Assembly: GCA_038045945.1 (NCBI GenBank)
Contig: JBBSXC010000003.1
Coordinates: 21,859-85,858, forward strand
Source of the DNA: Nanobdellota archaeon
GTDB lineage: Archaea > Nanobdellota > Nanobdellia > Pacearchaeales > GW2011-AR1
DNA: 64,000 nucleotides
Direction of reading: 5' to 3'
In this document: in pieces, positions 2,089-40,496 of the stretch
Layout of the letters: every line of letters starts with the position of its first letter
How positions within the stretch are numbered: the stretch's first letter is position 1
Notes under the pieces: generated by a model
Seen by the model: the letters and a program-made list of their open reading frames with translations, nothing else
Database searches by the model: none
Told to the model about the DNA's origin: nothing
Position numbers and translations under genes: made by a program

Positions 2089-2931
2089 ATGAACTTACAC
2101 GAAAACATTGGTGATGCAGAACTAGTAACAAAAATTAAACTCAAAGGAACACTAAAAGCATTACCAGATTTCTACGTTAACAAAGAAGTTGCAGAATTCA
2201 AGAAGAAACACCCGAAAGCAGGACCTATGGAAGTATTCAAGGCAGTAAGAAAAAAACTACACGAATCATACGGAGCATACCAAAACAGAAAAAAAAGAAG
2301 AAGAACACTATACTTAGAAGAACTAAAATTAGCAAGAGAAGAAAACTGGGGAAAAGAAAAAAACAGTCCTGAAATGAAAGAAGTAAGAAGAAGAATGATA
2401 AGAACAAGCGTATCAGCAACAGAAAGACTAGAAGCAGACTATAACTCAATTTATGAACCAATGCACAAAGAATTAGGAAAGTTCAAAACACTAATGGACT
2501 TAGGATGTGGAATAAACCCAGTATCATTCTGCCCATCTGATTACAAAGAAGTAAAAATATACGCCTATGACATTGACAGTGGAGACATAGAATTCTTAAA
2601 CAAATACTTCAAAATCATGGGGATGAACGGAGAAGCAAACGTACTAGACCTGCACGACCTAGAAGCAGTAGACAAACTACCAAAAGTAGATGTTTGCTTA
2701 TTATTCAAAATTATTGATCCACTAGAAAGAAGAGGACACGAATTCTCAGAACAACTAATAAAAAGACTCAAAGCAAAACAAATAGTTGTAAGTTTCGCAA
2801 CAAAAACCATTACAAGAAAAAGCATGAATCACCCTAACAGGGGATGGTTCGAACAAATGATAAAAAGGCTAGGAAAAACTTACAAAACAATTAAGACAAA
2901 CAACGAAATATACTACGTCGTAAAGAACTAA
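2089..2931 (+). CDS. Class I SAM methyltransferase resembling FmrO/ArmA/RmtB 16S rRNA (G1405-N7) methyltransferases
   Basis: Motif I is LMDLGCGINPVSF, followed by IYAYDIDSGDIEFL. Both match the DxGCGxNPL ... YxAxDID pattern I recall for the ArmA/Rmt family. Basic helical N-terminal domain. TATA-like 'ctttatatag' about 30 nt upstream of the ATG. Confidence 0.45.
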   Translation: MNLHENIGDAELVTKIKLKGTLKALPDFYVNKEVAEFKKKHPKAGPMEVFKAVRKKLHESYGAYQNRKKRRRTLYLEELKLAREENWGKEKNSPEMKEVRRRMIRTSVSATERLEADYNSIYEPMHKELGKFKTLMDLGCGINPVSFCPSDYKEVKIYAYDIDSGDIEFLNKYFKIMGMNGEANVLDLHDLEAVDKLPKVDVCLLFKIIDPLERRGHEFSEQLIKRLKAKQIVVSFATKTITRKSMNHPNRGWFEQMIKRLGKTYKTIKTNNEIYYVVKN

Positions 2932-2974
2932 GTTATGCAGAGGATTTTTAAACAAGATTAATCTTTAGACTACA

Positions 2975-3880
2975 ATGGCTTATTTTGATGGTGTTATCGA
3001 AGTGCTTAAAAAAGAGGGGCAAGTATTACAAGTACTAATAATAGCATTAGCAATAATAATTGTTACTAACATCGTTCTTAAAAGAATTAAGACAAAAATG
3101 CTCAAAAGAGCTAACTCAAAAATACAGATTTCTAACATAAAATTCTTCTTCAGAATAATACAAGTAGTAATAATATTCGTAATTGTAACGGTTGGAGTAT
3201 TCTACTATTTTGGTTCATGGACGGGTCTAGGAGTATTCGCCGGACTAATAACTGCTGGTTTAGGATTCGCACTACAAAAACCCATAACTGGGATAGCAGC
3301 ATGGCTAATAATAATCATAAAAAGACCATTCAACGTGGGCGACAGAATAAGAATAGGAACAATGAGAGGGGAAGTTTATGACATAACACTAACACACTTG
3401 TACCTAGACGAAATTGGTGGTGACGTGGACACAGAAGACTACTCAGGAAGAAACATAATAGTACCTAACCACTTACTCTTTGAAAATAACATCATAAACT
3501 ACACACTAGTAGATGATTTCGTCCTAGGAGAAGTACCGGTGAGCGTAACTTACGAAAGCGATATTATAGAAGCAAAAAAAATTATTGAGGAAGCAACAAA
3601 AAAGTATGCTGATGAGTTCTCACTAAAGGGTAAAAGAGAAATAAAACTAAGAGTATTCATGGAAGCCAGCAGCATAACAATAAGAGCAAGATTTTACGCT
3701 CACGTCAAAACAATATCTAAAGTTAAAAGCGACATAACAGAAGAAGTATACAACAAAATTAAAGAGAGTGGAAAAGTAGATATTGCTTACCCTCACACAC
3801 ACTTCATTATGAAAAATAGCCTAAAGGCCACAAGCGAAAAGGGGGATGAAAACCCTTTAGGAAATAATAAAAAACAATAA
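2975..3880 (+). CDS. MscS-family mechanosensitive channel
   Basis: Three N-terminal TM helices, then KRPFNVGDRIRIGTMRGEVYDITLTHLYL, the conserved MscS beta-domain motif. Confidence 0.7.
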   Translation: MAYFDGVIEVLKKEGQVLQVLIIALAIIIVTNIVLKRIKTKMLKRANSKIQISNIKFFFRIIQVVIIFVIVTVGVFYYFGSWTGLGVFAGLITAGLGFALQKPITGIAAWLIIIIKRPFNVGDRIRIGTMRGEVYDITLTHLYLDEIGGDVDTEDYSGRNIIVPNHLLFENNIINYTLVDDFVLGEVPVSVTYESDIIEAKKIIEEATKKYADEFSLKGKREIKLRVFMEASSITIRARFYAHVKTISKVKSDITEEVYNKIKESGKVDIAYPHTHFIMKNSLKATSEKGDENPLGNNKKQ

Positions 3881-5455: not shown

Positions 5456-5704
5456 CTATTTGTAAGCGTTCTTTCTATGTTTAACACTTAAAATTAATAC
5501 CACTAATTTGTCATGATAAAGGTCAAGCATCAATCTATAATTTCCAATTCTTAATTTATATCCTGATTCGCCCACTAGTTTTTCTAAGAAATGTTCTGGT
5601 CTTATTTTTATTCTTTCTAAACCTGAACTAATTTGCTCTTGGGCAGTTTTATCTAATTTGAAAAATTGTCTTTCTGCATTCTGGGAGAATTCTATCTTAT
5701 ACAT
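5456..5704 (-). CDS. RelE/ParE-family type II toxin
   Basis: 82 aa. The C-terminus YKLRIGNYRLMLDLYHDKLVVLILSVKHRKNAYK matches the RelE/StbE signature (YRliY ... vl.i.HRk.aY). Confidence 0.6.
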   Translation of the reverse strand: MYKIEFSQNAERQFFKLDKTAQEQISSGLERIKIRPEHFLEKLVGESGYKLRIGNYRLMLDLYHDKLVVLILSVKHRKNAYK

Positions 5705-6004: not shown

Positions 6005-6394
6005 ATGATTTTCCTTATGAATAATCATTATGATGCAGTTAGAGCAGGTGCACAAGCATTAGCTAATGCTCTTGAAGGCATTACTGATTTTAGAGGGGTT
6101 TCTGACAGATTCTTCTTAAAACGCATCAATGACCGTGAAATTAATGCTACTACTCTTTATGGCGGTCCCTCTACTGACGCACACCTTTCTCATTCTAGCG
6201 GCAAATTATCATTAACTATTCCTCAATTTAGGGATCCTATTATTGATGTTCACTTACCTGCTGACCACTTTGAAGTACCTGAAGGTTACGAAGTTGTTGG
6301 AAGAAACGGAACATTACACCTAAGAACAACTGCTAAGTCTATAGAAGCACTACAAGAAGAAATAAGAAAAATAACAAGAATAAGAAGAGATTAA
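6005..6394 (+). CDS. Hypothetical protein
   Basis: 129 aa ORF. T-ending codons on the + strand contrast with neighbouring + genes. Convergent with the 12-gene operon and overlaps it by 4 nt. Confidence 0.35.
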   Translation: MIFLMNNHYDAVRAGAQALANALEGITDFRGVSDRFFLKRINDREINATTLYGGPSTDAHLSHSSGKLSLTIPQFRDPIIDVHLPADHFEVPEGYEVVGRNGTLHLRTTAKSIEALQEEIRKITRIRRD

Positions 6395-6972
6395 TCCCTC
6401 ACCCTATCTTCTGTATTAATCTCATAACTAGCATGTGGTAAGTGATACACTGGACTACTTGTTGAAAGTCTTAATGCTAACTCAATATCGTATCCGCTTT
6501 TCTTCAAGTCTTCACGATTTGGGGGCATTTGCTCGACCAATTCTCTAATACTCCTAACTGTTCTAACCTTAACGATGTTACATAAAGAACTACTACAGTC
6601 TCCCCTATAAGAAAATAATGCAACTTCTCCACCATACCGATAAACCTCTACGTATCGATCATCAATTCCCTGCTGAAAAACAAAGTTATCCTTATCAGTC
6701 TGATTATAAACAATTATTTCTTTTGAGTGAGGACCCCTAAAAAGGATTAGCTCATTGTTATCTAAAAAAATACTCATCTTAGGATTACTTTCCTTAACTG
6801 CCTCAAATCTAGTCGGGCCTGTAAAAAACATCATACCTTGGCCTTCCAAAGTCTTATTCATCCTTATAGCAAAAATATCCAAGGGCCTTACTGAAGAACA
6901 ATCCATCGCTTCACTAACATCATAACCTCGAGAACTAAGATCTTCTAGCGGTGAAGGGATTGAAGTAGTCAT
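6391..6972 (-). CDS. Hypothetical protein (operon gene 12 of 12)
   Basis: 193 aa, MTTS start. Its start overlaps the upstream gene's stop by 4 nt (ATGA). Confidence 0.4.
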   Translation of the reverse strand: MTTSIPSPLEDLSSRGYDVSEAMDCSSVRPLDIFAIRMNKTLEGQGMMFFTGPTRFEAVKESNPKMSIFLDNNELILFRGPHSKEIIVYNQTDKDNFVFQQGIDDRYVEVYRYGGEVALFSYRGDCSSSLCNIVKVRTVRSIRELVEQMPPNREDLKKSGYDIELALRLSTSSPVYHLPHASYEINTEDRVRD

Positions 6973-7469
6973 TCTATCCTCCTTGTCAACCTAACCAGTT
7001 GGGAATCAATTATCTCCATCGTTTTTATATTGCTCATTGGCATAGTCCTCATTCTAGAATGCTGAAAATCCAATGACGGAGCAAAAGCCCCCTTGCCTAG
7101 AACTTGGGAATCACTAATTACTAAACTTTCATCATTATGACTTCTATAGAACCCTGCTGCTCTAACATCATTATATATGTGTTCAGCATCCCAAGAGAGT
7201 GTTCCATAATATTGTACTAACAATAAGTCTCCCTCATTAACCTTTGATAAAACTAATCTGGGCTTATACTTTTCTGATTCTAATTCGTCCTGAACTTTCC
7301 AATCATTCAGGCCGTAAGCATGCATCTTCTCCCACAAATTCTTCCTTGATAAGCCTAGAACCGCTGCTGCTTCAGCTTTACGACCTTTAGTAAAAACTAA
7401 AGTATCCTTAATTGCTCTCTTTTCAACTTCGCGAACATAATCAGAAAGAGAACGAGGAAGAAAAGTCAT
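6969..7469 (-). CDS. Fis-type HTH protein (operon gene 11)
   Basis: The N-terminus REVEKRAIKDTLVFTKGRKAEAAAVLGLSRKNLWEKMHAYGL matches the Fis/NtrC C-terminal HTH pattern (G.K..AA..LG.sR..L..KlK..G). 4-nt overlaps on both sides. Confidence 0.5.
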   Translation of the reverse strand: MTFLPRSLSDYVREVEKRAIKDTLVFTKGRKAEAAAVLGLSRKNLWEKMHAYGLNDWKVQDELESEKYKPRLVLSKVNEGDLLLVQYYGTLSWDAEHIYNDVRAAGFYRSHNDESLVISDSQVLGKGAFAPSLDFQHSRMRTMPMSNIKTMEIIDSQLVRLTRRIE

Positions 7470-7876
7470 TTTGTCTCTCCAGATTTTGATCTATCAATAA
7501 TTTTTCTCAGAATATCCCTTACGTTATATGTCTCTCTTGAAATATGTGCATCATTCATTCTTTTCCCAATTCTACCAAAGAGAGAACTAATCTTCTTTCT
7601 GTCATCTTCACTTATATCTTTATGAAATTCCACTGAAGGGTCATACTTCAAATCCTCATTTAATGGGATGGCATAATTATCAAAACCTAAGCCGTAACCT
7701 AATGGTGACTCGTTGTAGTATCTAGTAACATAAAAATTTAAACCACTAACCCTTGAAAAAAGCCTATCTTTACCAAGGCTGAGAGTCTGTGGAGAAGTAT
7801 GAAACTTTAACCAAAAATCAGTAGGAATCTTATCAACAAATTCAATAACGTCATCAAGGGAAATATTAGAAGTCAT
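7466..7876 (-). CDS. Hypothetical protein (operon gene 10)
   Basis: 136 aa, MTSN start, ATGA overlaps. Confidence 0.4.
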   Translation of the reverse strand: MTSNISLDDVIEFVDKIPTDFWLKFHTSPQTLSLGKDRLFSRVSGLNFYVTRYYNESPLGYGLGFDNYAIPLNEDLKYDPSVEFHKDISEDDRKKISSLFGRIGKRMNDAHISRETYNVRDILRKIIDRSKSGETK

Positions 7877-8277
7877 TTTGAGTCCTCCACGAATCTTTCT
7901 AAATCGGACATTATAGCTTCACGATCAGACCATTCTTCTGTTGTGATGCTCTTATCAGTTTCTAATTTTTTATAAAGTCTGTTTAATCTATCATTTATTC
8001 CTTGAACCTGTCCATCAGGGCTTCCACAATCTGCAGAATCTGCTTCAATGGTTTGTAATACATCCAAAAAATCCGTATGAACTATTTCGATTGTTTTTTC
8101 TTTTGCTAACAGGTCTTTCCCTTCCATTTCAACATACCTATGATATATTTTAGCTCTAAATTTGTCATTAAGCTTAGCAACATAAACTCCCATCCCATAA
8201 TTTACTCTTCTCCATTCCTGAACTGGAATAGAATCAAGCTTATCTAACAACTTATACAAAAATTCGTAAGAAGTCAT
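7873..8277 (-). CDS. Hypothetical protein (operon gene 9)
   Basis: 134 aa, MTSY start, ATGA overlaps. Confidence 0.4.
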   Translation of the reverse strand: MTSYEFLYKLLDKLDSIPVQEWRRVNYGMGVYVAKLNDKFRAKIYHRYVEMEGKDLLAKEKTIEIVHTDFLDVLQTIEADSADCGSPDGQVQGINDRLNRLYKKLETDKSITTEEWSDREAIMSDLERFVEDSK

Positions 8278-8624
8278 TTTCCACTCCTAAGATATCTTCT
8301 ACCGCCTTCTTCACAAGCGTCACCTAACTCCTTCTCAATATCCTCTCTTCCTTTAATCTTTGTTATGTTAAGAACCCAATCAGTAAGAACTTGTTTAGAA
8401 TTGCTACTATCTCTAAGTCCTGGATAAGATGTCCTTTTAACAGGGCTTTCATGAATATAGAATGAACTATTCCCTTCCCTATAAGGCCTATAAAAACCAA
8501 CACTTATTTCAACACCAACTACTTTTCCTTCAATAATAGGAAAAGCATAAAGAGCCCTAACCTCGTCACCCTCAACCAAACCATCAAGAGTTTTCAAAAC
8601 CTCATCCTTAGACTGAAAAGTCAT
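8274..8624 (-). CDS. Hypothetical protein (operon gene 8)
   Basis: 116 aa, MTFQ start, ATGA overlaps. Confidence 0.4.
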   Translation of the reverse strand: MTFQSKDEVLKTLDGLVEGDEVRALYAFPIIEGKVVGVEISVGFYRPYREGNSSFYIHESPVKRTSYPGLRDSSNSKQVLTDWVLNITKIKGREDIEKELGDACEEGGRRYLRSGK

Positions 8625-9025
8625 TTTGAGTCCTCCAAGATATCAAGTTTAGATAAGGATCTTTCTTTTTTTCTTAATGCTTGGATTTCACGTGTCTTTT
8701 CTTTGATTTTATCTTTAGACTCTTTTTTCCTTTCTAATTCTCGATATTTATGATTAATCTTTCTATAAAGATTTAAAAATTTATTATTGCTAAAACCAAC
8801 AATATCCTCATTAATACTTTCATCGTCTAAAGTTGCTTCAAATTTGTCACAATATAACCCATAAGACAACATTCTTACTTTTAAATTATTTATTTTAATT
8901 TCATACTCATAAGAATAAGGTCCTGCGGTTTCCTTAACCTGATCAGTAAGCAATATCTTGCTTGCAGGTACTTCAAGCAACTTTCCCGCCAACTTATCAA
9001 AACTAACCTTTCTAAAAGAAGTCAT
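8621..9025 (-). CDS. Hypothetical protein with a Lys/Glu-rich helical C-terminus (operon gene 7)
   Basis: 134 aa, MTSF start. The C-terminus YRELERKKESKDKIKEKTREIQALRKKERSL looks coiled-coil. Confidence 0.4.
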   Translation of the reverse strand: MTSFRKVSFDKLAGKLLEVPASKILLTDQVKETAGPYSYEYEIKINNLKVRMLSYGLYCDKFEATLDDESINEDIVGFSNNKFLNLYRKINHKYRELERKKESKDKIKEKTREIQALRKKERSLSKLDILEDSK

Positions 9026-9435
9026 TTCTCTTCCTCCTTAACATATTTTCCTTTGGCAAAATCAACATACCTAAATTCTATTAATCCGCGATTAACTTTA
9101 GAATAAACCTCAACACCGGCAACTAATAATTCATCATTACATGTAAGTTTTTCATAAAAATCTTTTATAGAATCTAAACCTTCCAGTTTAGGAATCTGAA
9201 CACGAACATAAGAATGCACTGGGATGTATAAACCGGCATTATTGATAACAAATGTAGGTCTTGAATTTTCATTAAGGCAAGCTTCAAGTTTAAAAGTTGT
9301 CCTATTATCAACAACCCATTCTCTACCAAAAGCAAAGTGGGGAGAAGACTGAACTTCGCAAGAATAAACCCCACCTTCAACAACAAAATATTCTAAATCC
9401 TTTTTGTTAGGAACAAAATTACTAGGAAACATCAT
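9022..9435 (-). CDS. Hypothetical protein (operon gene 6)
   Basis: 137 aa, predicted beta-rich, ATGA overlaps. Confidence 0.4.
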   Translation of the reverse strand: MMFPSNFVPNKKDLEYFVVEGGVYSCEVQSSPHFAFGREWVVDNRTTFKLEACLNENSRPTFVINNAGLYIPVHSYVRVQIPKLEGLDSIKDFYEKLTCNDELLVAGVEVYSKVNRGLIEFRYVDFAKGKYVKEEEK

Positions 9436-9935
9436 TTTCTTTCAACCTCATATTTTCTTCTAGCTTGGGAACCTTTAAACATACCATAAAGTCCACCCAT
9501 AGCTGAACCCATCCCTAAAAGAACAGAACTTAATCTTATGGCTTCATAAGGTAATTTTTGTTCATCAAAAGCTTTCATTTCTCCTTGATAATTTTGGTAA
9601 GCATCAGTGCTTGATAATCTTTCAAGTTCGCTATCAGCATAAGATAATGATTCATCAATACCTCTAGAAACCCCCTCGTAAAAGACTGATTTTCTTTTAG
9701 TCCTAAAACCTCTAGTGTCTCTTTCTTCTAACTGATTCTTAATCTCTAATATTTCATTCTTAGCTTCATTAGTAACATCATAAAGAAAAACTTCAGTAGG
9801 CTCAATAGGCTTTTCATCATCTAAATAACTCAAAGCAGGACTAGAAACGCCCAGACCAATGGCGCTCAAAACTATTCCTGCTAAAGAATTACGAGTAATA
9901 GTTTTAGGATGAAGATCCATATTATCTAAAATCAC
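9432..9935 (-). CDS. Membrane protein with two TM segments (operon gene 5)
   Basis: 167 aa. N-terminal TM GIVLSAIGLGVSSPALS and C-terminal TM LLGMGSAMGGLYGMF. Confidence 0.4.
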   Translation of the reverse strand: MILDNMDLHPKTITRNSLAGIVLSAIGLGVSSPALSYLDDEKPIEPTEVFLYDVTNEAKNEILEIKNQLEERDTRGFRTKRKSVFYEGVSRGIDESLSYADSELERLSSTDAYQNYQGEMKAFDEQKLPYEAIRLSSVLLGMGSAMGGLYGMFKGSQARRKYEVERK

Positions 9936-10362
9936 CCCTTAAGAGCATCTCAAGCATTTGTATAGTTACTCTTTCATCATTCAAAGCACGACCGCCTAAA
10001 GAAACAACATGGTTCCTAGCTCCACTAACTCCTGAGTTTAGAACAAATTTATCTTTGGGAACTCTTGACATTATATAATAATAACCATCGTTTAGTCCAT
10101 CGCAAAAATAAATATCTGCCTGAAGAATTTCATGAGTTAAAATGTCTCTGTCATCTATAGCATGGATCCTCTTTGGGTCGTACTTGCTATCTCTAACATC
10201 TTCATCAAATTCTGCCTTAAAATCATCCCAAGATTCTAAGCCATCAAAAGAAGTCTTAACGATTATTGCTCTAGTCTCTGGAATAGTAATTAATTCGCCA
10301 TACCTAGAAGAGAAATCACTAAAAGAATCCTCATAAATAACAATTTTAGGAGAAGAAGTCAT
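9922..10362 (-). CDS. Receiver-like (CheY-fold-like) protein, paralog A (operon gene 4)
   Basis: MTSSPKIVIYED (a beta1 strand ending in an acidic pair). QADIYFCDGLNDG sits where a receiver phospho-Asp would be. KFVLNSGVSG is a hydroxyl-bearing beta4. The conserved Lys is missing. This is a motif-level call only. Confidence 0.35.
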   Translation of the reverse strand: MTSSPKIVIYEDSFSDFSSRYGELITIPETRAIIVKTSFDGLESWDDFKAEFDEDVRDSKYDPKRIHAIDDRDILTHEILQADIYFCDGLNDGYYYIMSRVPKDKFVLNSGVSGARNHVVSLGGRALNDERVTIQMLEMLLRGDFR

Positions 10363-10772
10363 ATTTTTTCTCCCCTAAGTAATTTTTCTAGAAATCCTTG
10401 TGTTATCTCGATTCCTGAGTATGCTCTAACATTCTTTTTTTCAGCTAAGTATCGTATATCGTTATCTCCGGTGTTAAGAACTAATTTTTTATTATCGATC
10501 CTATCCATTAATGTTAATGCTTTTCCAACAAGTCCATCAGAAAAATAAATATCCGCTTGTTGGATATCATGAGAGTTTACTTCCTCGCGGCTAAGGGGAT
10601 TAAAAGTTGTTAGTGGATAATTTGCTTCAACAAATCTTCTAACCTTTGCAGGATCATCTAAGAATTCAACAAAGAAAACATTTACAGGCATAACTTTAAG
10701 AATTTCACCATAACGATCTCTCAATGAAGGCCATTCGTCTTCATAAATAACAATTTTTGGAGAAGAAGTCAT
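10359..10772 (-). CDS. Receiver-like protein, paralog B (operon gene 3), tandem duplicate of the previous gene
   Basis: Shares MTSSPKIVIYED, QADIYFSDGL and KLVLNTGDND with paralog A. Confidence 0.35.
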   Translation of the reverse strand: MTSSPKIVIYEDEWPSLRDRYGEILKVMPVNVFFVEFLDDPAKVRRFVEANYPLTTFNPLSREEVNSHDIQQADIYFSDGLVGKALTLMDRIDNKKLVLNTGDNDIRYLAEKKNVRAYSGIEITQGFLEKLLRGEKI

Positions 10773-10774
10773 AA

Positions 10775-11275
10775 CTAATCTTTCCTCCTTTCGTAAGAAG
10801 ACTCAATACCTAATTTGTGTCTGACCTGAGAAACAACACGCCTACCAACATCATAGCCAAGTGAAGCAAGATAAGAAGCAATATCCCTATCACTAAAAGG
10901 AGCATTACTATCCTCGCTATCAATGTAAGATTTAACTTCATCAAAGACGTATTGGGGAATCTTGTTTCTTTCTCTCTCACTACTAGCTAATATTTCAGCA
11001 TTCTTAACAACATCCTCAATACTACAAGAAATAGGAGGAGAAAGACGAAGATTTTGAAGAAAACCTGTATAGGGTTTACCACCACTACCGCCCAATAAAT
11101 CAAGTTGCAACTTAGAGCGATCATAAACATTAGATCTATCATAAACTTTAGGAAGATCAGCACCACGAGAATAATTAGACTTAGCACTAGGAGGCGGAGA
11201 TGGGCTCTTATAACCGGGTCTGCCAGGAATATTCAACCTTTTCTTACGACCGCGAAACTTACCAGGCTTAGCCAT
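10775..11275 (-). CDS. Gly/Pro/Ser-rich protein with a C-terminal HTH resembling sigma-70 region 4 (operon gene 2)
   Basis: The N-terminus is low complexity (PGRPGYKSPSPPPSAK). The C-terminus SDRDIASYLASLGYDVGRRVVSQVRHKLGI matches the helix-turn-helix pattern of sigma region 4.2 and LuxR-type proteins. Confidence 0.35.
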   Translation of the reverse strand: MAKPGKFRGRKKRLNIPGRPGYKSPSPPPSAKSNYSRGADLPKVYDRSNVYDRSKLQLDLLGGSGGKPYTGFLQNLRLSPPISCSIEDVVKNAEILASSERERNKIPQYVFDEVKSYIDSEDSNAPFSDRDIASYLASLGYDVGRRVVSQVRHKLGIESSYERRKD

Positions 11276-11277
11276 GA

Positions 11278-12576
11278 CTAACTATACCCCCTAGAACTTT
11301 TCTCAAAAGATTTCTTAGCCCTCTGGTATAATACTGAATTGCCAAATTCTCCATCAAGAAATCTTTCCTCACGAGGATCATGCAAAGGAGTACCCTTACT
11401 CAACTCAACAAACGCAAGTCTTTGATAAGGAGTATCACAAGATTCACGCATCTCAGAAAGATGTTTGTGTTTCCCAGAAAGCTTGAACATAGCTGAGTGA
11501 TAATGAAAATCACTCCAATAAAATTCGCCATCAGAAACATCCGATTTACTAAAAGAAGAAAGAATCTTAAAAATTTTTCTTCTACCAAATACTTTAGCAA
11601 GAGGCTGAGCATGATCAATATAGAAAGCCGCAAGCTTCATAGCAGAAGAATCAGAAAACATGTGAGAAGCACTAACAAAGAGACATTCAGCTTTCAAAGG
11701 ATCACTCTTAACAAGTAATTCGGCCTGATCAGCAACAGCTCTGGCTAGAGCGGGATAATGATAAAGAGCATCACCCAGATGAGACTGGACACCGGTTAAA
11801 TGAAACATGGTGTGATGGAAAGAAGAATCGCCGCCACCAATCCTCTTGAAAGCCTCAATACTTTTAATATAAGAATCATCATCAAAAGAAGCTTCAGCAA
11901 TAAAAGAACTAAGAAGGTGAAGAGACCTGTTATCAGGCCAAAGAGTAAGACCCTTATCAGTCAATTCTCTAGCCTTGCCAAGATGGCCATCATGAGTAGC
12001 ATCAGAAGCAATACTCTGAATAACGCAACTAAGACCTTGAGAGTAAGAAATCCTAACTTCTCTTTCACATTTAGAAGGCTCCCAATCAGCAGCAGTACAC
12101 TCGATTGGAAAACGATCAACATCAAGAATCATGTGTTCAAGAGAAGCATACTTACCTAGAGGAGACTTCTTTTGACTAGTAGCAAGCTCAAAATGACCCA
12201 TTTCGCCTTCAACTTCAACATCAGAACAAGCATCCTTAACGCCAGTTTGACACCTAAAACCAGCGCTGTAACCCTTGAGATACATGATACTCGCAATTAA
12301 GAAAGGAAGACCAACACAGTTCCCACCCTTGCGAGAAAGAACATCTTGAGGCCTGAAAGTTTCAGGAACGTATACAAAACCACTTCTTCTAAGGTCTCTC
12401 TTAATATCAAGAGCAGCGACTTTAGGATCAGAATCAACACTAATAGAATCAGCAAGAAATTTCATTTCTCTAAGAGTCCTATCATCCGCACCACAAACCT
12501 CTAAGTAAGAAGAAACTTCAGCACTAGTCCTATCTCCTTGAAGTGCAGTTAGTGGTAAATCTAAAACATCAGTCAT
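11278..12576 (-). CDS. Transglutaminase-like (papain-fold) protein (operon gene 1)
   Basis: 432 aa. SRKGGNCVGLPFLIASIMYLKGYSAGFR matches the transglutaminase-core catalytic Cys motif (G.C..fA.l..al.R..GiPaR). Candidate His follows in GEMGHFELATS. TATA-like element lies in the 12577-12697 divergent region. Confidence 0.45.
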   Translation of the reverse strand: MTDVLDLPLTALQGDRTSAEVSSYLEVCGADDRTLREMKFLADSISVDSDPKVAALDIKRDLRRSGFVYVPETFRPQDVLSRKGGNCVGLPFLIASIMYLKGYSAGFRCQTGVKDACSDVEVEGEMGHFELATSQKKSPLGKYASLEHMILDVDRFPIECTAADWEPSKCEREVRISYSQGLSCVIQSIASDATHDGHLGKARELTDKGLTLWPDNRSLHLLSSFIAEASFDDDSYIKSIEAFKRIGGGDSSFHHTMFHLTGVQSHLGDALYHYPALARAVADQAELLVKSDPLKAECLFVSASHMFSDSSAMKLAAFYIDHAQPLAKVFGRRKIFKILSSFSKSDVSDGEFYWSDFHYHSAMFKLSGKHKHLSEMRESCDTPYQRLAFVELSKGTPLHDPREERFLDGEFGNSVLYQRAKKSFEKSSRGYS

Positions 12577-12629
12577 ATTTCATACTCCATTATTAACTTA
12601 GGAGTAGTGAATACGCTTGTAATATCTAA

Positions 12630-12657
12630 CTGATATTAATGATATGACTGATATTAA
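12630..12657. promoter_or_regulatory. Direct repeat 'ctgatattaa' x2 at 12630-12639 and 12648-12657, a candidate operator in the divergent promoter region
   Basis: Two exact 10-nt copies 8 nt apart sit between the operon start at 12576 and the AbrB-PhoU-like gene start at 12698. 'gttaaaaatagc' lies about 24 nt upstream of the 12698 ATG. Confidence 0.3.
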
Positions 12658-12697
12658 AAAGCGAAAGAGTTAAAAATAGCAAAATCTAGTAGTTTTT

Positions 12698-13615
12698 ATG
12701 GAAGAAAGGAAATTAATTAAGCAAGGTGGAGGTGGATTGACTATTTACCTGCCTAAGAAGTGGGTTGACAGAAGGGGGCTGAAGAACGGGGACAATGTTA
12801 GAGTCCTAGAAACAGACACCTCCCTAATAATTGAGGGTGACATTAATACCAAGAATGAAATAAAAATTGATATTAACGAATCAAACATTCACGACTTAAG
12901 ACACCTGCTTACTCATGCTTACCGTAGGGGTTTTAGCAAAATAATCATTAGTTATAACAAGCCGCAAGAAATAATTAAAGAAACAAAAAAAGTAACTAGT
13001 AACGTGCTTTTAGGATTCGAAGTAACAAGCATTGAACAAAAAAGCATCATTATAGAAAACATTTCTGAACCTAGTGAAGAAAAATTTGATGTAATGCTCC
13101 AAAAAGTATTCTTAGTAATATCAGAAACTAATGAAGTATTATTAAAAGATTTTACTAACGGGAAGTTTTCCAGCATTGACGAAATTAAAGAATTAAGAGA
13201 CCAAGGTGACAAATTCATAATATTCTGCAAAAGACTCATCACTAAGAACAGAAATGATAAAAACAGCCTCCTTGAATGGGAATTCATGACATTCCTTATG
13301 GACATCCACCACAATTACTATTATTTGTACCACTACGCTCATGATAACAAAATTAAGACTAACAAGAACTTCTCTCAATTAATAAAAGACTTAGGACTAT
13401 ACTTTAGTGATTTAAGAAGCGCTTACCTGAAGAGGGATGTATCAATAGTTCACAGAATTAATGAACAAAAAAAGAAATATCACTTTGGTGAAATAATTAA
13501 GCTATTAGAAAAATCGCGAGGGGAAGAAAACATTATCTATTCATACATTAGAGAAATATTTCGTTCAATCCAATTATCAACTAGTCCTATAATGTCAATG
13601 AGTTTGGGATACTAA
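12698..13615 (+). CDS. AbrB/SpoVT N-terminal domain fused to a helical PhoU-like domain (archaeal-type regulator), copy 1
   Basis: MEERKLIKQGGGGLTIYLPKKWVDRRGLKNGDNVRVLETD is a swapped-hairpin AbrB-type motif. The helical C-terminal domain is about 220 aa. Paralogous to 18265..19140. Confidence 0.5.
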   Translation: MEERKLIKQGGGGLTIYLPKKWVDRRGLKNGDNVRVLETDTSLIIEGDINTKNEIKIDINESNIHDLRHLLTHAYRRGFSKIIISYNKPQEIIKETKKVTSNVLLGFEVTSIEQKSIIIENISEPSEEKFDVMLQKVFLVISETNEVLLKDFTNGKFSSIDEIKELRDQGDKFIIFCKRLITKNRNDKNSLLEWEFMTFLMDIHHNYYYLYHYAHDNKIKTNKNFSQLIKDLGLYFSDLRSAYLKRDVSIVHRINEQKKKYHFGEIIKLLEKSRGEENIIYSYIREIFRSIQLSTSPIMSMSLGY

Positions 13616-13627
13616 ATTATTTGTTTC

Positions 13628-15187
13628 TTAATCTTTCTCTCTTCTTTCTTTTATCACTCTATCAGCAGTTCCTTCTCCCTGTTCCTTGTCAAGACTTTGT
13701 TTAGCGTCATAAAGATTTTTTGCTAATTCCCATCTGTCATGAACTCTATCGCCGGAAGTATGAAATTGTGGTCTCATCCAGTTATCAACATAGTTATATG
13801 TTATTTGAAGAACTTTACTCTCGATATCATCTGGGTCCTTTCCTTCTGCTGACATTTCAAGTAGTTTGGTTTTTACGCTTTCATAATCTGTTCTTCCTCC
13901 AGCTCTAACTACTGCTTCATAAGTTACGTCTGGGTTTAGATAAGCTGCAATTGCCGTTTTTTCATCACCTAATTTTTCAACCCACGCTCTAAAATCATAA
14001 GCTTCAGTTATTTCTCCTGCACCTAAATTCAATGCTTCAGCATCTAAGACTTTTTTGCCTTGAAGTGCAACACGAATGATTTTTTCTTTACGCTCATAAC
14101 TCAAATCTTTTTTATTTGAGTCTACTTTTTGAGCAAGACTATCCTTCTCTTGATTCAATGAAGTTACCTCGTTACGAATAGCAGCAAATCCTAAAGCTAC
14201 AGCAGTCAAAGCACCATTTATCAAGAACCATCTCTTAGCCCGTGCACGAGGCTTTGATGATTCATACCTCTTCATTGCTTTACTAAATTCTTCTTCAAGT
14301 GATTCTCCATCCTTGTATCTATCTGATGGGTCATAAGCTAAACACTTCCTCAAAAACGGTCTTAGAGGTTTAGGAATGTTTGATAATGAATCTTCAATCA
14401 TACCTTTATATTCCTGAAGACCAATATTTCTCATTGATTCAATTGGATCTTTAGAATTTTCTAACCTTTTTTCTGTAGGGTACTTACCACTAAGCAGCTT
14501 GACTGCTAGAGAACCAACTGACCAAACATCTGACTGAGTTGTTGGGTGAGAATTATCAGCAAATACTTCTGGAGCTCTGATAGCTACATGACCAATATTG
14601 TCTCTTGGGCTCTCACTCCAATCTTCTGGACTAACTGTTGTAGCAGTACCTGTATCGGCAATAACTAATCTTGTTCGACTACTGCCAGCCGGATCATAAG
14701 ACATTATGTTATCAGAATTTAAGTCTCCATGAACTCTAGAGAAATCTGTGTGTAACTCCTTTACTCCATGAACTATGTCCTCTAGCCCTAAAAGGATGGT
14801 TTCTGTTCTCTTGCTTCCTTTAAGGTAATGGTTCCAGTATTCTTCCCAATTCCTTAGAGTACTATGACATTGAGGCATCCAAATAAATGGTTTACCATCA
14901 AGGTCTTTGAATGGAACTGATGGAAGAACGTTACGTGCTGGAGCAAATCTTGATTCTCTAATTAAGACATCAGTCTCATTAATGTTTCTATGAACTCTTT
15001 GCTTTTTAGCAATTTCTGATGGAGAAAAAACCTTTATTGCCCCGTGCTGACCACTAATAACATCAAAAGCAGCATAGACTGCTCCATTACTTCCTCTCCC
15101 CAACTCTTGATAATTAACAAATCTGTCAGAACGAATAACATCCTCATGACCATCACTCCTCTTAGGGATACTACTACTAGAACTCAT
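13628..15187 (-). CDS. Membrane-spanning Hanks-type Ser/Thr protein kinase, copy 1
   Basis: Glycine loop and VAIK-equivalent GRGSNGAVYAAFD...AIKVF. Catalytic loop VHGDLNSDNIM. DFG-like IADTGTA. RAPEVF...DVWSVG matches the APE and DxWSxG subdomains. One TM helix WFLINGALTAVALGFAAI, then a C-terminal domain of about 180 aa. Confidence 0.7.
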   Translation of the reverse strand: MSSSSSIPKRSDGHEDVIRSDRFVNYQELGRGSNGAVYAAFDVISGQHGAIKVFSPSEIAKKQRVHRNINETDVLIRESRFAPARNVLPSVPFKDLDGKPFIWMPQCHSTLRNWEEYWNHYLKGSKRTETILLGLEDIVHGVKELHTDFSRVHGDLNSDNIMSYDPAGSSRTRLVIADTGTATTVSPEDWSESPRDNIGHVAIRAPEVFADNSHPTTQSDVWSVGSLAVKLLSGKYPTEKRLENSKDPIESMRNIGLQEYKGMIEDSLSNIPKPLRPFLRKCLAYDPSDRYKDGESLEEEFSKAMKRYESSKPRARAKRWFLINGALTAVALGFAAIRNEVTSLNQEKDSLAQKVDSNKKDLSYERKEKIIRVALQGKKVLDAEALNLGAGEITEAYDFRAWVEKLGDEKTAIAAYLNPDVTYEAVVRAGGRTDYESVKTKLLEMSAEGKDPDDIESKVLQITYNYVDNWMRPQFHTSGDRVHDRWELAKNLYDAKQSLDKEQGEGTADRVIKERREKD

Positions 15188-15459: not shown

Positions 15460-15696
15460 ATGAAGACTATTACTATAAAGCTTCCTGAGAGAGAAGCTGA
15501 AGAGCTTGAATTATTTGTTAAGTCTAGCGGTTATCCTTCGAAATCGGAATTTATTAGACACTTAATAGTTGGTAAGATGGGTTTAGAAAGAAAAGAAAAG
15601 CTCGGATGGATGATGCTTGGCCAAAAAGCTTTAGCTAAAAGATGGAATAATCCTAAAGATGATAAGGTATGGAGCAGTTATATAAAAAATGATTAA
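15460..15696 (+). CDS. Ribbon-helix-helix (CopG-like) antitoxin
   Basis: ITIKLPEREAEELELFVKSSGYPSKSEFIRHLI is a typical RHH beta-alpha-alpha fold. Overlaps the downstream toxin gene by 8 nt. Confidence 0.55.
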   Translation: MKTITIKLPEREAEELELFVKSSGYPSKSEFIRHLIVGKMGLERKEKLGWMMLGQKALAKRWNNPKDDKVWSSYIKND

Positions 15697-16030
15697 TCAA
15701 GGAGACTTATTATTGGCGCCTTTTCCCTTTTCAGATCAGTCTGGAAGAAAAGTAAGGCCTGTAATTGTTATTAGTAATGACAAATATAACTCTCATCATG
15801 ATGATATAGTTGCAGTTGGTGTAACGTCTAACGTTTTCAAAAATCCATACTACATTGATTTCACCAATGCTGACTTAGACTTTGGTAATCTAGTAACTGT
15901 TTGCTCAATAATGGCTGATAGTCTAACACTGCTTGATAAAGAATTGATTACTAAAAGAATCGGTAAAGTTAACAAGAACAAAATGAAAACAGTTTTTGAT
16001 AAAGTTGTTGAAATAATAAAAACTAAATAA
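15689..16030 (+). CDS. MazF/PemK-family toxin (endoribonuclease-type)
   Basis: GDLLLAPFPFSDQSGRKVRPVIVIS matches the MazF/PemK N-terminal signature (GdivlvdfPfsd.sg.K.RPalVls). Confidence 0.55.
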   Translation: MINQGDLLLAPFPFSDQSGRKVRPVIVISNDKYNSHHDDIVAVGVTSNVFKNPYYIDFTNADLDFGNLVTVCSIMADSLTLLDKELITKRIGKVNKNKMKTVFDKVVEIIKTK

Positions 16031-16043
16031 ATTTAGTCATCTT

Positions 16044-16574
16044 TTAATGATCCCACTCGCCTTTTGATTCCTGAGTGGGTTTTTCTTTTATTATTTCTCT
16101 GAATCTTATTGCTCCTTCATCATAAATTGCTGATTCTCTTCTTTCAGCAATCTTATAGCTTGCATAACCTAGTAAAGTTAAAGCACCAAATGTTCCCATT
16201 AACGCTTGATGTAGGGGATTATTATCATGTTCTCTTCTATCATTTTTATAAGTAATTACTGATTCTTCTTTAGAAGAAAGATTTATCTCTTGGTCTAATT
16301 TCTTTATGGTTTCATCAAATTTGGCTGCTAATGGTTCTTGATAAATCTTTAATTCTTCTCTAACATTATTCGTTCCTAAAGACCAAAGCTGACTTTGAAG
16401 ACCATTTCTATAATTAACCAACAATCGATAATGATCATAACCCATGGTTTTAGGCCTGTCAGGGCCTCCAAATACCCAAAAACCAAGACTAGAAGCTAAA
16501 CCTAATGATGAAAGAGCAAAAGTAAGACTAGAACAACGCTTAATTCTCTTAACAGAATCTAACCGAGAAGTCAT
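16044..16574 (-). CDS. Membrane protein, unknown function
   Basis: 176 aa. TM helices LTFALSSLGLASSLGFWVF and LMGTFGALTLLGYASY. 4-nt overlap with the upstream gene. Confidence 0.4.
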   Translation of the reverse strand: MTSRLDSVKRIKRCSSLTFALSSLGLASSLGFWVFGGPDRPKTMGYDHYRLLVNYRNGLQSQLWSLGTNNVREELKIYQEPLAAKFDETIKKLDQEINLSSKEESVITYKNDRREHDNNPLHQALMGTFGALTLLGYASYKIAERRESAIYDEGAIRFREIIKEKPTQESKGEWDH

Positions 16575-16888
16575 TTCTTTTTCCTCTCACTCAAAAAAGA
16601 GTTAATTGCCTTAGACAAGTCTGGTTTGTGTGAATCTCTGCTTCTTAATGACTCATAATAATTATCATAAGAAGAAGTGTTACTTCTATAACTTCCACCC
16701 CACTCAAATAATCGCCAATTATCATTATCAACAACAACCAAGTCGGATCTGCCATCGCCATTAAAATCTAAAGAATAAACTTCGCGAGGATCATAATCAG
16801 AAGAATTATTGCCCAGAACGAAACCAGCAGATAAAACGCCTAAAGCACAAGCAGCAAATCCCATCTTTCTTAAATTTTCATCAGACAT
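16571..16888 (-). CDS. Small secreted protein with an FG-GAP-like repeat
   Basis: Signal-like N-terminus MGFAACALGVLSAGFVLG. DFNGDGRSDLVVVDNDNWRLFEW matches the FG-GAP/VCBS calcium-binding repeat. Confidence 0.45.
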   Translation of the reverse strand: MSDENLRKMGFAACALGVLSAGFVLGNNSSDYDPREVYSLDFNGDGRSDLVVVDNDNWRLFEWGGSYRSNTSSYDNYYESLRSRDSHKPDLSKAINSFLSERKKK

Positions 16889-16902
16889 TTTTCTTTTCTC
16901 CT

Positions 16903-18144
16903 TTACTTAAAATTATAAGTTAAGCCAAGCATACCTGAATAAGAATTTTTACCTTCTACAGGCATAGCAGCACGAAGGGCGAAGTCTAAACTAAGACTCT
17001 TATCAGCATTAGTGTAAATTTTAGCTCTTAAATCAGCATTATTAACACTCAAACTCTTATCATTAAGATCAGAATGCCTACCAACTTGTAAAACAACATC
17101 CTTAATCCATGAATCACTAACGCTACCTAAACCAACAGCAACATCGGAGTTAAAGTATCTGCTTGAAGGTTCATCATGATACTTAACGTCAAAACTAATG
17201 CTGCCTAAATTACCACTATTGCTAGCTGAAGCACCAAAGAAATCAATTCTAGAGTCGCCATCACCGATGCCGAAAGGGAAAGTAGCATCACCATCTCCAC
17301 CAAGGAATGGAGTAATGGAGTTGAAAAGAGTGTCCTGAGTACCAACAAGGAAAGCACCACCTGGAGCCTTCTTACCAAAACGAACCCTAGCCTCAAAACC
17401 CTTATTTTGGCCTTGAACAGTATCAAAAACTTTAGCTTGAGTGAGAACTTTGTAACCGTCTATAGCACTATTAGCATCAGACCACTTGTAAGAGAAAGCA
17501 GTGTTAAAAGTATCAGAATCATTAACTCTATGACCGCCAATACCAAAATCAATCTTATTATCATTAAATACTAAAGCATAACCAAAATTACCATCGCTAT
17601 CAGCAGTAACCTGAGGTTTAAACTTATCAACATTAAAACCGATAGCACTAGCAAGTCGGTTCTCAAAAGGTTTAGCATTATCCTGGAATTCAAAATTAAG
17701 GAAGTCAAGAGTACTATCTTTGAATGATTTCTCAAGCATAAGGCGACCATTATCCAAAGATGAATCTAAGAAAGACTGATAACCCGCATTAAAGCGAACA
17801 CCAGTATTAGACTCAGACTTACCAAAAGTTAAGTCAGCACCATAAATATTAGATCCGTTCTCGCCACGATAAGCAACCTTACCTAAATCACTAGAAAGAA
17901 TCTGGTGAGTTTGCAAACCACCATGACCATCAGCATAAGCTCTAGAAGTCAAAACTACAGAATCAACAGCCCTTTCTAAGTCAGACTTAGCTGGAGCATT
18001 ATCTCCGGCTAGAGCACTAGCTCCAAGAGCATAAGGCATCAAGGCAGCAGTTAAAGCTGCAACATTAGCCATTTTCCTTATACTTTTTCTTATTGTTTGT
18101 TTCATTGTATTTTTATCCATCATCTTATGGTCTGTCGTAACCAC
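16903..18144 (-). CDS. Secreted beta-strand-rich protein, possibly surface or porin-like
   Basis: Signal peptide MANVAALTAALMPYALGASALA. Alternating hydrophobic pattern throughout. C-terminus MLGLTYNFK. Confidence 0.45.
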   Translation of the reverse strand: MVTTDHKMMDKNTMKQTIRKSIRKMANVAALTAALMPYALGASALAGDNAPAKSDLERAVDSVVLTSRAYADGHGGLQTHQILSSDLGKVAYRGENGSNIYGADLTFGKSESNTGVRFNAGYQSFLDSSLDNGRLMLEKSFKDSTLDFLNFEFQDNAKPFENRLASAIGFNVDKFKPQVTADSDGNFGYALVFNDNKIDFGIGGHRVNDSDTFNTAFSYKWSDANSAIDGYKVLTQAKVFDTVQGQNKGFEARVRFGKKAPGGAFLVGTQDTLFNSITPFLGGDGDATFPFGIGDGDSRIDFFGASASNSGNLGSISFDVKYHDEPSSRYFNSDVAVGLGSVSDSWIKDVVLQVGRHSDLNDKSLSVNNADLRAKIYTNADKSLSLDFALRAAMPVEGKNSYSGMLGLTYNFK

Positions 18145-18264: not shown

Positions 18265-19140
18265 ATGAAACGTAAATTAGTACAACAAGGGGCTAGCACA
18301 ATGATGATTAGTCTACCTAGCAAGTGGGTTAAGGCAAATAACCTGATAAAGGGGAGCGAAGTGGACATGGATGAAAAGGGTAAAGAAATAGTTATTTCAA
18401 CTTCAATCAAGAAAGATAATGAAAAAAAGGCCGTAGTGGACCTATCAGGATATGATTTGCTAATAAACAGAGTTATAGTTTCTCTATACCTTAAGGGATA
18501 TGAGGAAGTAGAACTAATATTCAAAAACCGTGAAGAAATGAAGAAAGTGAAGAAGCATGTCCTTGAAGAATTGCTTGGTTTTGAAGTAATAAAACAGGAA
18601 CAAAATAAGATGATCATAAGAGACCTTACAGGTTTTGAAAAACAAAATATTGATGATGTGATAAAGAGGATATTCTTCGTTCTAGATGGGATGCTTGAAG
18701 ACTTAATTAATGCTGTAAACAAAAAAGAAAGCCTTGATGGAATAGTCGACCTTGATTCAAGCATTAATAAGCTGACACACTTTTCACTTAGAATACTTAA
18801 CTCTAAAGGATATTCTCAAGCAGATAAGACCGAAGAATTCTATGGTATGATCTCGATACTTGAACAAATTGGCGACTTAATAAAACAATTAGTGATGGAC
18901 TTAACAAAAGACAAACTTTCAACAAACCAACTAGAAGTAATCAGAAAAATTAGATTACTGTTAGATATTTTTTGCAAAATATTGTTTAAGTTTAATAAAG
19001 AAGAAGCTGTTAAATTCGCAAAACTATACCAAGAAATAAAAGATTCAATAAAGAATAAGAATAAGGTTGACTTAACGCTTAACCAGATTAACGAGGCGAT
19101 AATAAGAATGAATAACCACTTGCTGGTAACCGTGTTATAA
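18265..19140 (+). CDS. AbrB/SpoVT N-terminal domain fused to a PhoU-like helical domain, copy 2
   Basis: MKRKLVQQGASTMMISLPSKWVKANNLIKGSEVDMDEKGKEIVIS. Same architecture and gene context as 12698..13615. Confidence 0.5.
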   Translation: MKRKLVQQGASTMMISLPSKWVKANNLIKGSEVDMDEKGKEIVISTSIKKDNEKKAVVDLSGYDLLINRVIVSLYLKGYEEVELIFKNREEMKKVKKHVLEELLGFEVIKQEQNKMIIRDLTGFEKQNIDDVIKRIFFVLDGMLEDLINAVNKKESLDGIVDLDSSINKLTHFSLRILNSKGYSQADKTEEFYGMISILEQIGDLIKQLVMDLTKDKLSTNQLEVIRKIRLLLDIFCKILFKFNKEEAVKFAKLYQEIKDSIKNKNKVDLTLNQINEAIIRMNNHLLVTVL

Positions 19141-28440: not shown

Positions 28441-28484
28441 TATCAGAAAGCTTTTTAATACCTTAAAATTAACTAGTAACATCT

Positions 28485-38021: not shown

Positions 38022-38561
38022 ATGGAAGAAAAAGAAAAAACAGAAGAAAAAAGTGCTTCAGAAACATTAGAAGAATCAGAAGGGAACGCAATGCTAGAAA
38101 AAATAATAAGTGTACTAAACGGAGAAAAATCGCAGATAGCAGAAGAAAAAATTAGCAAGGAATCAGAATACCTAGAAAAACTACAAAGATTACAAGCAGA
38201 ATTCGAAAACTTCCGAAAAAGAGTAGAAAAAGAAAAACAAGAACAACAAAGTAACGCAAACACAAACCTAATAGGAGAACTATTAAACGTAATGGACAAT
38301 TTTGAACTATCACTAAAACACAACAAAGACAAAGGAGTAGAAATGATATATCAAGAACTGAAAAAAACATTAGAAAAACAAGGACTAAAAGTCATAGAAA
38401 CAAAAGGAAAATTCGACCCAAAAATACACGAAGCAGTAATAAAAATCGCAGGAAAAGAAGATGACGCTATATTAGAAGAGATACAAAAGGGTTATGTGCT
38501 AAACAATAAGCTTTTAAGGGCAGCAAAAGTAAAAATTAGTAAACTGGAAGAAAAAAAATGA
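38022..38561 (+). CDS. grpE: GrpE nucleotide exchange factor
   Basis: Coiled-coil [17 protein letters not shown], then a GrpE C-terminal beta domain. Overlaps dnaK by 4 nt. Confidence 0.75.
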
Positions 38562-40402: not shown

Positions 40403-40496
40403 AAAATAATTTACTAATAACAACATCCTAATTAGTGAATCCAAAATAATCATTATCTTTCATTTAATTTAAAAAGTTAAATACTACATCATAATC

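Follow-up and report, generated by a model that had tools for sequence, protein, structure and literature searches.

A twelve-gene operon of a DPANN archaeon headed by a widespread gene pair coding for a putative transglutaminase-like protein and a sigma-54 RpoN-domain protein

What holds together a chain of twelve genes, packed end to end on one strand, most of whose products resemble no known family? The question is raised by a stretch of 64,000 nucleotides, called the window in what follows, of contig JBBSXC010000003.1 from a Nanobdellota archaeon (assembly GCA_038045945.1). An earlier note, made from the sequence alone, had drawn attention to these genes as a possible co-occurring set; they are numbered here from g1 (11278-12576) to g12 (6391-6972), all on the minus strand. 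The twelve-gene operon at 6391-12576 is genuine, and only its first two genes travel together: a g2-family gene lies directly after the g1 homologue in 12 of the 12 distinct archaeal loci that have downstream sequence, and g3-g12 are found in none of them. The pair g1-g2 is a new lead, and the idea of twelve genes inherited as one system is corrected. The source DNA is that of a DPANN archaeon from the Hainich groundwater well H43, in the 0.1-um filter fraction; its proteins are labelled 'MAG: ... Nanoarchaeota archaeon' at NCBI, the operon carries the locus tags AABW73_01180 to 01235, and its G+C content is about 33-36%.

Reading the minus strand from 12576 to 6391, twelve abutting open reading frames (ORFs) fill the interval exactly. 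An independent gene caller, applied to the source contig, yields the same twelve genes, with g5 begun at the ATG at 9920. On the coding strand, 12 frames stay open for 100 codons or more, where 500 dinucleotide shuffles gave 0.16 on average and never more than 3: the chain on one strand is thus borne out. Consecutive genes share an ATGA overlap at 8 of the 11 junctions (g3/g4, g5/g6, g6/g7, g7/g8, g8/g9, g9/g10, g10/g11 and g11/g12). The earlier statement that no intergenic space is left is only nearly right: there are 2-nt spacers at g1/g2 and g2/g3, and at g4/g5 a 1-nt spacer with the ATG start, or a 14-nt overlap with a GTG start. A GGAG-type ribosome-binding site, or Shine-Dalgarno (SD) sequence, stands ahead of 10 of the 12 starts, and the stereotyped junction consists of GGAGG, about 7 nt, then AAAATGACTTC.

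The proteins resemble each other at their ends because this junction DNA is stereotyped, which accounts for the N-termini of the MTS/MTF type as well as the C-termini of the ...EDSK type. An MT N-terminus is found in 9 of the 12 products: the MTS and MTF starts that had been noticed account for seven (five and two), and MTT and MTD for one each. Of the window's 12 ATGA overlaps, 8 lie in the operon, as do 9 of its 14 MT- starts and 10 of its 20 SD-led starts; an SD leads 10 of the 12 starts of the operon and 10 of the 72 outside it. Such a pattern is expected of the internal cistrons when an archaeal operon is translationally coupled, and the description of the locus as one tightly coupled operon, made up mainly of small proteins of no known family, stands.

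The related loci were drawn from GTDB genomes (two of them Woesearchaeota), from JGI metagenomes and from look-ups of g1 homologues. The scans used patterns derived from a smaller alignment, A2, the full alignment A1 being too divergent; a scan of genome contigs with the g1 sequence alone gave no match. The paired loci come from groundwater, marine (TARA) and other metagenomes, and one of them, L026, has no more than the N-terminal half of g2. The g1-g2 pair is widespread in DPANN archaea, Woesearchaeota included. The genes around it vary from locus to locus, and some are housekeeping genes: in L018, the pair has a methyltransferase gene upstream of it, and downstream of it the genes for RNA polymerase subunit L and AMMECR1.

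The first member of the pair belongs to a large and divergent family. An exhaustive HMMER search, conducted for g1 only, finds at least 105 relatives with 22-37% identity (106 clusters with the query counted in, of which 35 fall below 1e-30); a word-indexed homology search with g1 returned only g1 itself, and nearly failed even with a 40-sequence profile. In an alignment of 40 sequences of the family, Cys87 and His148 are invariant, and conservation reaches at least 90% at Asn86, Gly89, Glu159 and Thr161 and in an FDD motif. The family consensus reads GNCLGLPLLIG..L.E.G..P.FR, then PLEH, then ETT, which we take to parallel the G.C..fA.l...lR..GIPAR, H.W.E, DPT core of transglutaminase-like proteins (PF01841-type motifs). 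The transglutaminase- or papain-like Cys motif of the earlier note is thus real, and shared by the whole family.

The AlphaFold2 model of g1 (predicted local distance difference test 92.6, predicted template modelling score 0.89) puts these residues in context. Cys87, inside the motif G-N-C-L-G, sits at the N-terminus of a helix, 89-100, that begins right after it; His148 lies on strand 147-153, and Glu159 follows strand 156-158. Behind this N-terminal domain comes an array of about 250 residues of the tetratricopeptide repeat (TPR) type, with the tandem helix-turn-helix repeats that match TPR profiles and structures. No match to g1 is found in NCBIfam, PADLOC or PHROGs, and a Pfam search of the 40 family members gives two weak matches, Transglut_core in one (0.018) and DUF553 in one (0.088). 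The transglutaminase-like fold of the N-terminal domain is a prediction from the motifs.

A transglutaminase-like domain accompanied by a TPR array is also the architecture of bacterial YchA/SirB1, and the two-domain layout of eukaryotic menin is alike. The g1 family differs from YchA/SirB1 in that none of its 40 members matches, at E<=0.1, the Pfam models Transglut_core2 or TPR_9, presumably those expected for YchA/SirB1; in that the putative third catalytic residue of g1 is a Glu; in that the family is archaeal (DPANN); and in its strict pairing with an RpoN-domain protein, a pairing that is not known for YchA. The literature mentions YchA/SirB1 as a transglutaminase-like/TPR protein whose function is unknown.

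The second member, g2, had been described as carrying a helix-turn-helix (HTH) of the sigma-r4 type. The assignment has to be changed: its C-terminal 52-62 residues are a sigma-54 RpoN domain, by Pfam, NCBIfam, PDB and hhalign alike. Residues 104-165 match positions 99-160 of the Sigma54_DBD profile (Pfam, 1.8e-10), NCBIfam gives a match to the C-terminus of rpoN, and the PDB matches are the Aquifex RpoN domain structures 5ui5 and 2o8k (E 2e-8 for 2o8k). The hhalign match to E. coli RpoN (95.7%) is confined to RpoN residues 418-474. Residues 113-164 of g2 align end to end with the RpoN-box HTH of Aquifex aeolicus RpoN (2o8k, 5ui5), the element that in bacterial sigma-54 binds the -24 promoter element, and g2 retains the RR-V---R part of the RpoN box ARRTVAKYR. 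The rest of the protein is unlike a sigma-54: g2 is only 166 residues long, Pfam finds neither AID nor CBD in it, so that a Region I and a core-RNA-polymerase-binding domain are both undetected, and the idea that the N-terminus could be a sigma-54 Region I is supported neither by Pfam nor by hhalign. That N-terminus carries a peptide conserved in the family, QxQxhSPPIANS, which reads LQNLRLSPPIS in the g2 of the window (alignments A5 and A9). Since g2 is short and without a core-binding domain, and since the archaeal polymerase uses no sigma factors, g2 appears to be a stand-alone DNA-binding protein, presumably a regulator, rather than a sigma factor.

Bacterial sigma-70 factors have been reported in Woesearchaeota by Castelle et al. 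2021 (PMC8204110), who found no anti-sigma factors controlling them. Both cases involve bacterial-type transcription-factor domains resident in DPANN genomes, but the domain of g2 is derived from sigma-54, not sigma-70. In the DPANN literature, we found no mention of sigma-54-type domains, of a transglutaminase-like partner, or of the g1-g2 pair.

Two further observations were made beside the pair in other genomes. A Woesearchaeota protein of 329 residues is encoded about 900 bp from it (L011 7549-8538, minus strand; L003 4062-5051; L012 4899-5888); its match to Sigma54_DBD is almost complete (3.8e-14, profile positions 12-160), and its RpoN box, ARRTVAKYR, is perfect. In L026, the ORF that follows the truncated g2 (2650-2889, plus strand) begins with MKIQLSLTPQLSQKLEQRLAL, which by eye is like sigma-54 Region I. 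Such sigma-54-like proteins next to the pair in two other lineages (L011, L026) may be a hint that a regulatory network derived from sigma-54 extends more widely in DPANN.

The reading that we favour, with moderate confidence and with the mechanism of the pair included, is that of a translationally coupled operon of twelve genes in which a conserved regulatory pair, g1-g2, heads a lineage-specific cargo of ten genes. The DNA-binding regulator would be g2, and g1 would control it post-translationally, by binding, cleaving or deamidating the N-terminal peptide of g2 with its TPR groove and its Cys-His site; g1 would then be analogous to an anti-factor or to a processing enzyme. Genes g3-g12 would be accessory cargo recruited behind the pair by this lineage, and would be translated by re-initiation at the SD-led ATGA junctions.

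Several points weigh against this reading. As regards the enzyme, g1 itself has no Pfam match at E<=1, a profile of its N-terminal domain only finds nothing relevant in the PDB, and an hhalign comparison with the core of human TGM2 failed; among the matches listed in the fold searches, only TPR matches appear, the TPR array swamping the N-terminal domain. The next conserved acidic residue after His148 is Glu159, and the usual third catalytic residue is an Asp. As regards the pair, the functional link that we infer between g1 and g2 comes from gene adjacency alone, and a distant homologue of g1 in L017 (22% identity), in a bacterial-type neighbourhood, has no g2. As regards the cargo, the orphan status of g3-g12 was obtained with searches less sensitive than exhaustive HMMER, and distant relatives may exist.

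A bolder form of the same proposal, which we consider unlikely, makes of g1-g2 a DPANN-wide post-translational switch, assembled from bacterial parts, that gates transcription without a sigma-dependent polymerase and, here, drives a ten-gene module for a lineage-specific interaction. In this form, g1 would modify or cleave the QxQxhSPPIANS peptide of g2, a stand-alone RpoN-domain protein, and the orphan module, with its duplicated alpha/beta proteins, its membrane protein and its second bacterial-type HTH, would mediate, for example, host attachment or conflict. Much of archaeal diversity belongs to the DPANN archaea, few of whose regulators are known; the g1-g2 pair, present in groundwater, marine and subsurface DPANN, is a testable candidate for the reuse of bacterial transcription parts by reduced genomes.

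Table 1. Genes of the operon and the adjoining divergent region, in window coordinates
Feature	Position	Strand	Description
g1	11278..12576	-	432 aa; N-terminal transglutaminase/papain-like Cys-His(-Glu) domain, putative (Cys87, His148, Glu159); C-terminal TPR array, about 178-429
g2	10775..11275	-	166 aa; basic Gly/Pro-rich N-terminus, conserved peptide, C-terminal sigma-54 RpoN-box HTH (GRRVVSQVR)
g3	10359..10772	-	137 aa; predicted alpha/beta doubly wound domain, paralog of g4
g4	9922..10362	-	146 aa; paralog of g3 with a 15-residue insertion; single-member cluster
g5	9432..9920	-	membrane protein; 162 aa from ATG (gene-caller start), 167 aa from GTG 9935
g6	9022..9435	-	137 aa orphan; no match in Pfam, PADLOC, PHROGs, NCBIfam or PDB; single-member cluster
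g7	8621..9025	-	134 aa orphan; basic, highly charged C-terminal helix
g8	8274..8624	-	116 aa orphan; no match in Pfam, PADLOC, PHROGs or NCBIfam
g9	7873..8277	-	134 aa orphan; no match in Pfam, PADLOC, PHROGs or NCBIfam
g10	7466..7876	-	136 aa orphan; no match in Pfam, PADLOC or PHROGs
g11	6969..7469	-	166 aa; N-terminal Fis/NtrC-type HTH (12-52), C-terminal domain of about 110 aa of no assigned family
g12	6391..6972	-	193 aa orphan, last gene; its stop and that of the convergent ORF 6005-6394 overlap by 4 nt
divergent intergenic region	12577..12697	.	121 nt between g1 and the AbrB/PhoU-type regulator gene (12698-13615); candidate operator and promoter

We now turn to the ten genes that follow the pair (Table 1). 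With tblastn and phmmer, g3-g12 have no relative in about 15 distinct related loci. Where searched, they have no significant family match in Pfam, NCBIfam, PHROG or PADLOC, and no PDB sequence match, the HTH of g11 excepted; a word-indexed search with g3 returned g3 itself and one fragment of 80 residues only. At 90% identity, all ten form single-member clusters except g7, whose cluster has two members, both from the same Hainich population. The biochemical role of g3-g12 cannot be assigned, and the tail, an example of strain-specific orphan cargo, has little interpretive value at present. The 129-residue product of the ORF that converges on g12 (6005-6394, plus strand) is also an orphan, of no matching family. 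The earlier remark that no described system has such a composition holds: neither a defence system nor a biosynthetic pathway was recognised.

The earlier note had likened the layout to a defence or conflict island. In such an anti-virus or inter-cellular system, g1 would be a protease effector or activator, and the orphans would be fast-evolving sensors or immunity proteins. The operon does lie amid toxin-antitoxin genes (ParE, PemK) and two Ser/Thr kinases; its last ten genes cluster only with sequences of their own population, as is expected of rapidly diversifying loci; and other g1-g2 loci, L011 and L023, also have small paralog pairs, described below, that are unrelated to those of the window. 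However, none of the products can be recognised as a nuclease, NTPase, TIR, SIR2 or pore-forming effector, PHROGs is blank for g1-g10, and so is PADLOC-DB v2 at E<=1, an absence that is weak evidence given the few archaeal models in that database. Furthermore, in L018 the pair lies beside housekeeping genes. The defence reading is left with no positive support, and we judge it improbable.

Small paralogous orphans were observed by the g1-g2 pair in two of the other loci: in L011, at 6714-7519, with 137 and 131 residues (5e-11), and in L023, at 121-471 and 2721-3071, with 116 residues each (5e-19). They were tested as relatives of g3 and g4, and are unrelated to them. Duplicated small genes may be a recurrent companion of the pair.

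It is less probable still that g3-g12 are the remnant of a virus or plasmid that integrated behind a resident g1-g2 pair. The style of the genes is typical of archaeal viruses and plasmids (116-193 residues, ATGA overlaps, an HTH protein, one membrane protein), and no cellular homologues of g3-g12 were found. On the other hand, there is no integrase, capsid or replication gene and no att repeat, with no integrase ORF between 5.4 and 13.6 kb; there is no adjacent tRNA gene, the sole tRNA being at 28484; PHROGs gives no match below E 0.01 for g1-g10; and scans of IMG/VR viral contigs with g1 and g12 were negative. At the 2-nt junction between g2 and g3, the SD of g3 falls within the codons for the natural, conserved C-terminus of g2, and this argues against a recent insertion of the ten genes. 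The composition of the operon, finally, cannot be distinguished from that of the other minus-strand genes of the window.

The apparently deviant codon usage of the operon was considered as a sign of foreign origin, and rejected: it is due to a strand asymmetry that runs through the window and is common to the other minus-strand genes. The AT skew of the coding strand ranges from +0.05 to +0.56 in plus-strand genes, most of them between +0.2 and +0.56, and from -0.40 to +0.29 in minus-strand genes, which suggests a mutational bias linked to the replication strand; for minus-strand genes, this asymmetry mimics an anomaly of codon usage. Two strain variants, L024 and L025, are identical to the window but for one substitution each, one synonymous in g2 and one Leu-to-Phe in g7, and noise at contig ends. 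They are so nearly identical that the ratio of nonsynonymous to synonymous substitution rates, dN/dS, cannot be estimated.

Within the tail, g3 and g4 had been recognised as tandem paralogs, and they are: they share 35% identity (E 9e-21, shuffle z = 25.7), the motifs KIVIYED, ADIYF(S/C)DGL, VLN(T/S)G and LLRG are conserved between them, and they are the sole paralogs among the operon proteins tested. Their model has six beta-alpha units, and the fold is predicted to be a generic Rossmann-like alpha/beta fold. An affiliation with CheY-type receivers, whose motif spacing theirs had been said to mimic, is not supported: they show neither a profile match, nor the (beta-alpha)5 fold, nor the complete quintet Asp-Asp/Asp/Thr-Ser/Lys. 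A cryptic phosphorelay, in which g3 and g4 would be degenerate receivers of the CheY type that work together with the HTH proteins and the kinases nearby, is thus very improbable, for the model has six units and not five, hhalign to CheY gives a probability of 0.4%, there is neither a Pfam Response_reg match at E<=1 nor a conserved Lys, and no histidine kinase is present, the neighbouring kinases being Ser/Thr kinases of the Hanks type.

The membrane protein g5 had been given two transmembrane segments. One is clear in a hydropathy scan, at residues 17-38 in the numbering from the GTG; the second, near the C-terminus, is a weaker, Gly-rich hydrophobic segment, scored by hand.

The Fis-type HTH of g11 is confirmed: residues 12-52 match Pfam HTH_8 (4.5e-11, 42.7 bits against a cut-off of 22) over profile positions 2-42 of 42, the full length of this Fis/NtrC-family domain. 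In NCBIfam, g11 matches Fis and the HTH at the C-terminus of sigma-54-dependent activators, and the PDB match is Fis. In contrast with NtrC-type proteins, the HTH of g11 is N-terminal and is followed by a domain of about 110 residues, and there is no AAA+ or receiver domain. It is perhaps a DNA-binding regulator.

The N-termini of g7-g10 (MTS...IP..W-like) are alike because the junction DNA is shared. These four proteins were considered as hidden paralogs, and the idea was dropped: only g7 and g9 stand out (z = 3.3), which is not significant after 55 comparisons.

The divergent region upstream of g1 contains two direct repeats of 16 nt, ATCTAACTGATATTAA and ATATGACTGATATTAA, at 12624-12639 and 12642-12657, with core TTAATATCAGT and a spacing of 18 nt; an inverted copy lies at 12565-12578, over the start codon of g1. 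The motif is not enriched in the window and is statistically unremarkable; an operator function of the repeats is plausible. Scans for sigma-70 promoters and intrinsic terminators, which do not apply to an archaeon, gave no excess over shuffles.

Toxin-antitoxin pairs and kinase modules do flank the operon, as the earlier note had it. The type II toxin-antitoxin genes are ParE (5456-5704) and PemK (15689-16030). The module is duplicated, at 12698-15187 and 18265-20730: each copy consists of a Hanks-type Ser/Thr kinase (519 and 529 residues, minus strand) and an AbrB(MazE)-PhoU-like regulator (305 and 291 residues, plus strand), arranged tail to tail, that is, convergently. In L009, a homologue of the regulator is found about 6 kb from the g1 homologue.

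Between the two modules, at 16044-18144 on the minus strand, lies another small operon of orphans, with three genes (406, 105 and 176 residues) and, like the main operon, with an ATGA overlap and an MTS start (ATGACTTCT). Its 105-residue product has a weak match to FG-GAP-like repeats. The 406-residue protein (16903-18123) was tried as a paralog of g1 and rejected (hhalign 1.2%).

Farther along the window, two plus-strand loci carry bacterial-type genes. The 531-residue protein encoded at 52334-53929 matches bacterial DnaA over residues 368-511 (TIGR00362, 2.4e-12, well below the cut-off), another bacterial-type domain in an archaeal genome. At 38022-41576, a bacterial-type chaperone cluster holds DnaK (614 residues, 1.4e-267) between ORFs of 179 and 359 residues that are probably GrpE and DnaJ; this cluster fits the bacterial systems reported in DPANN.

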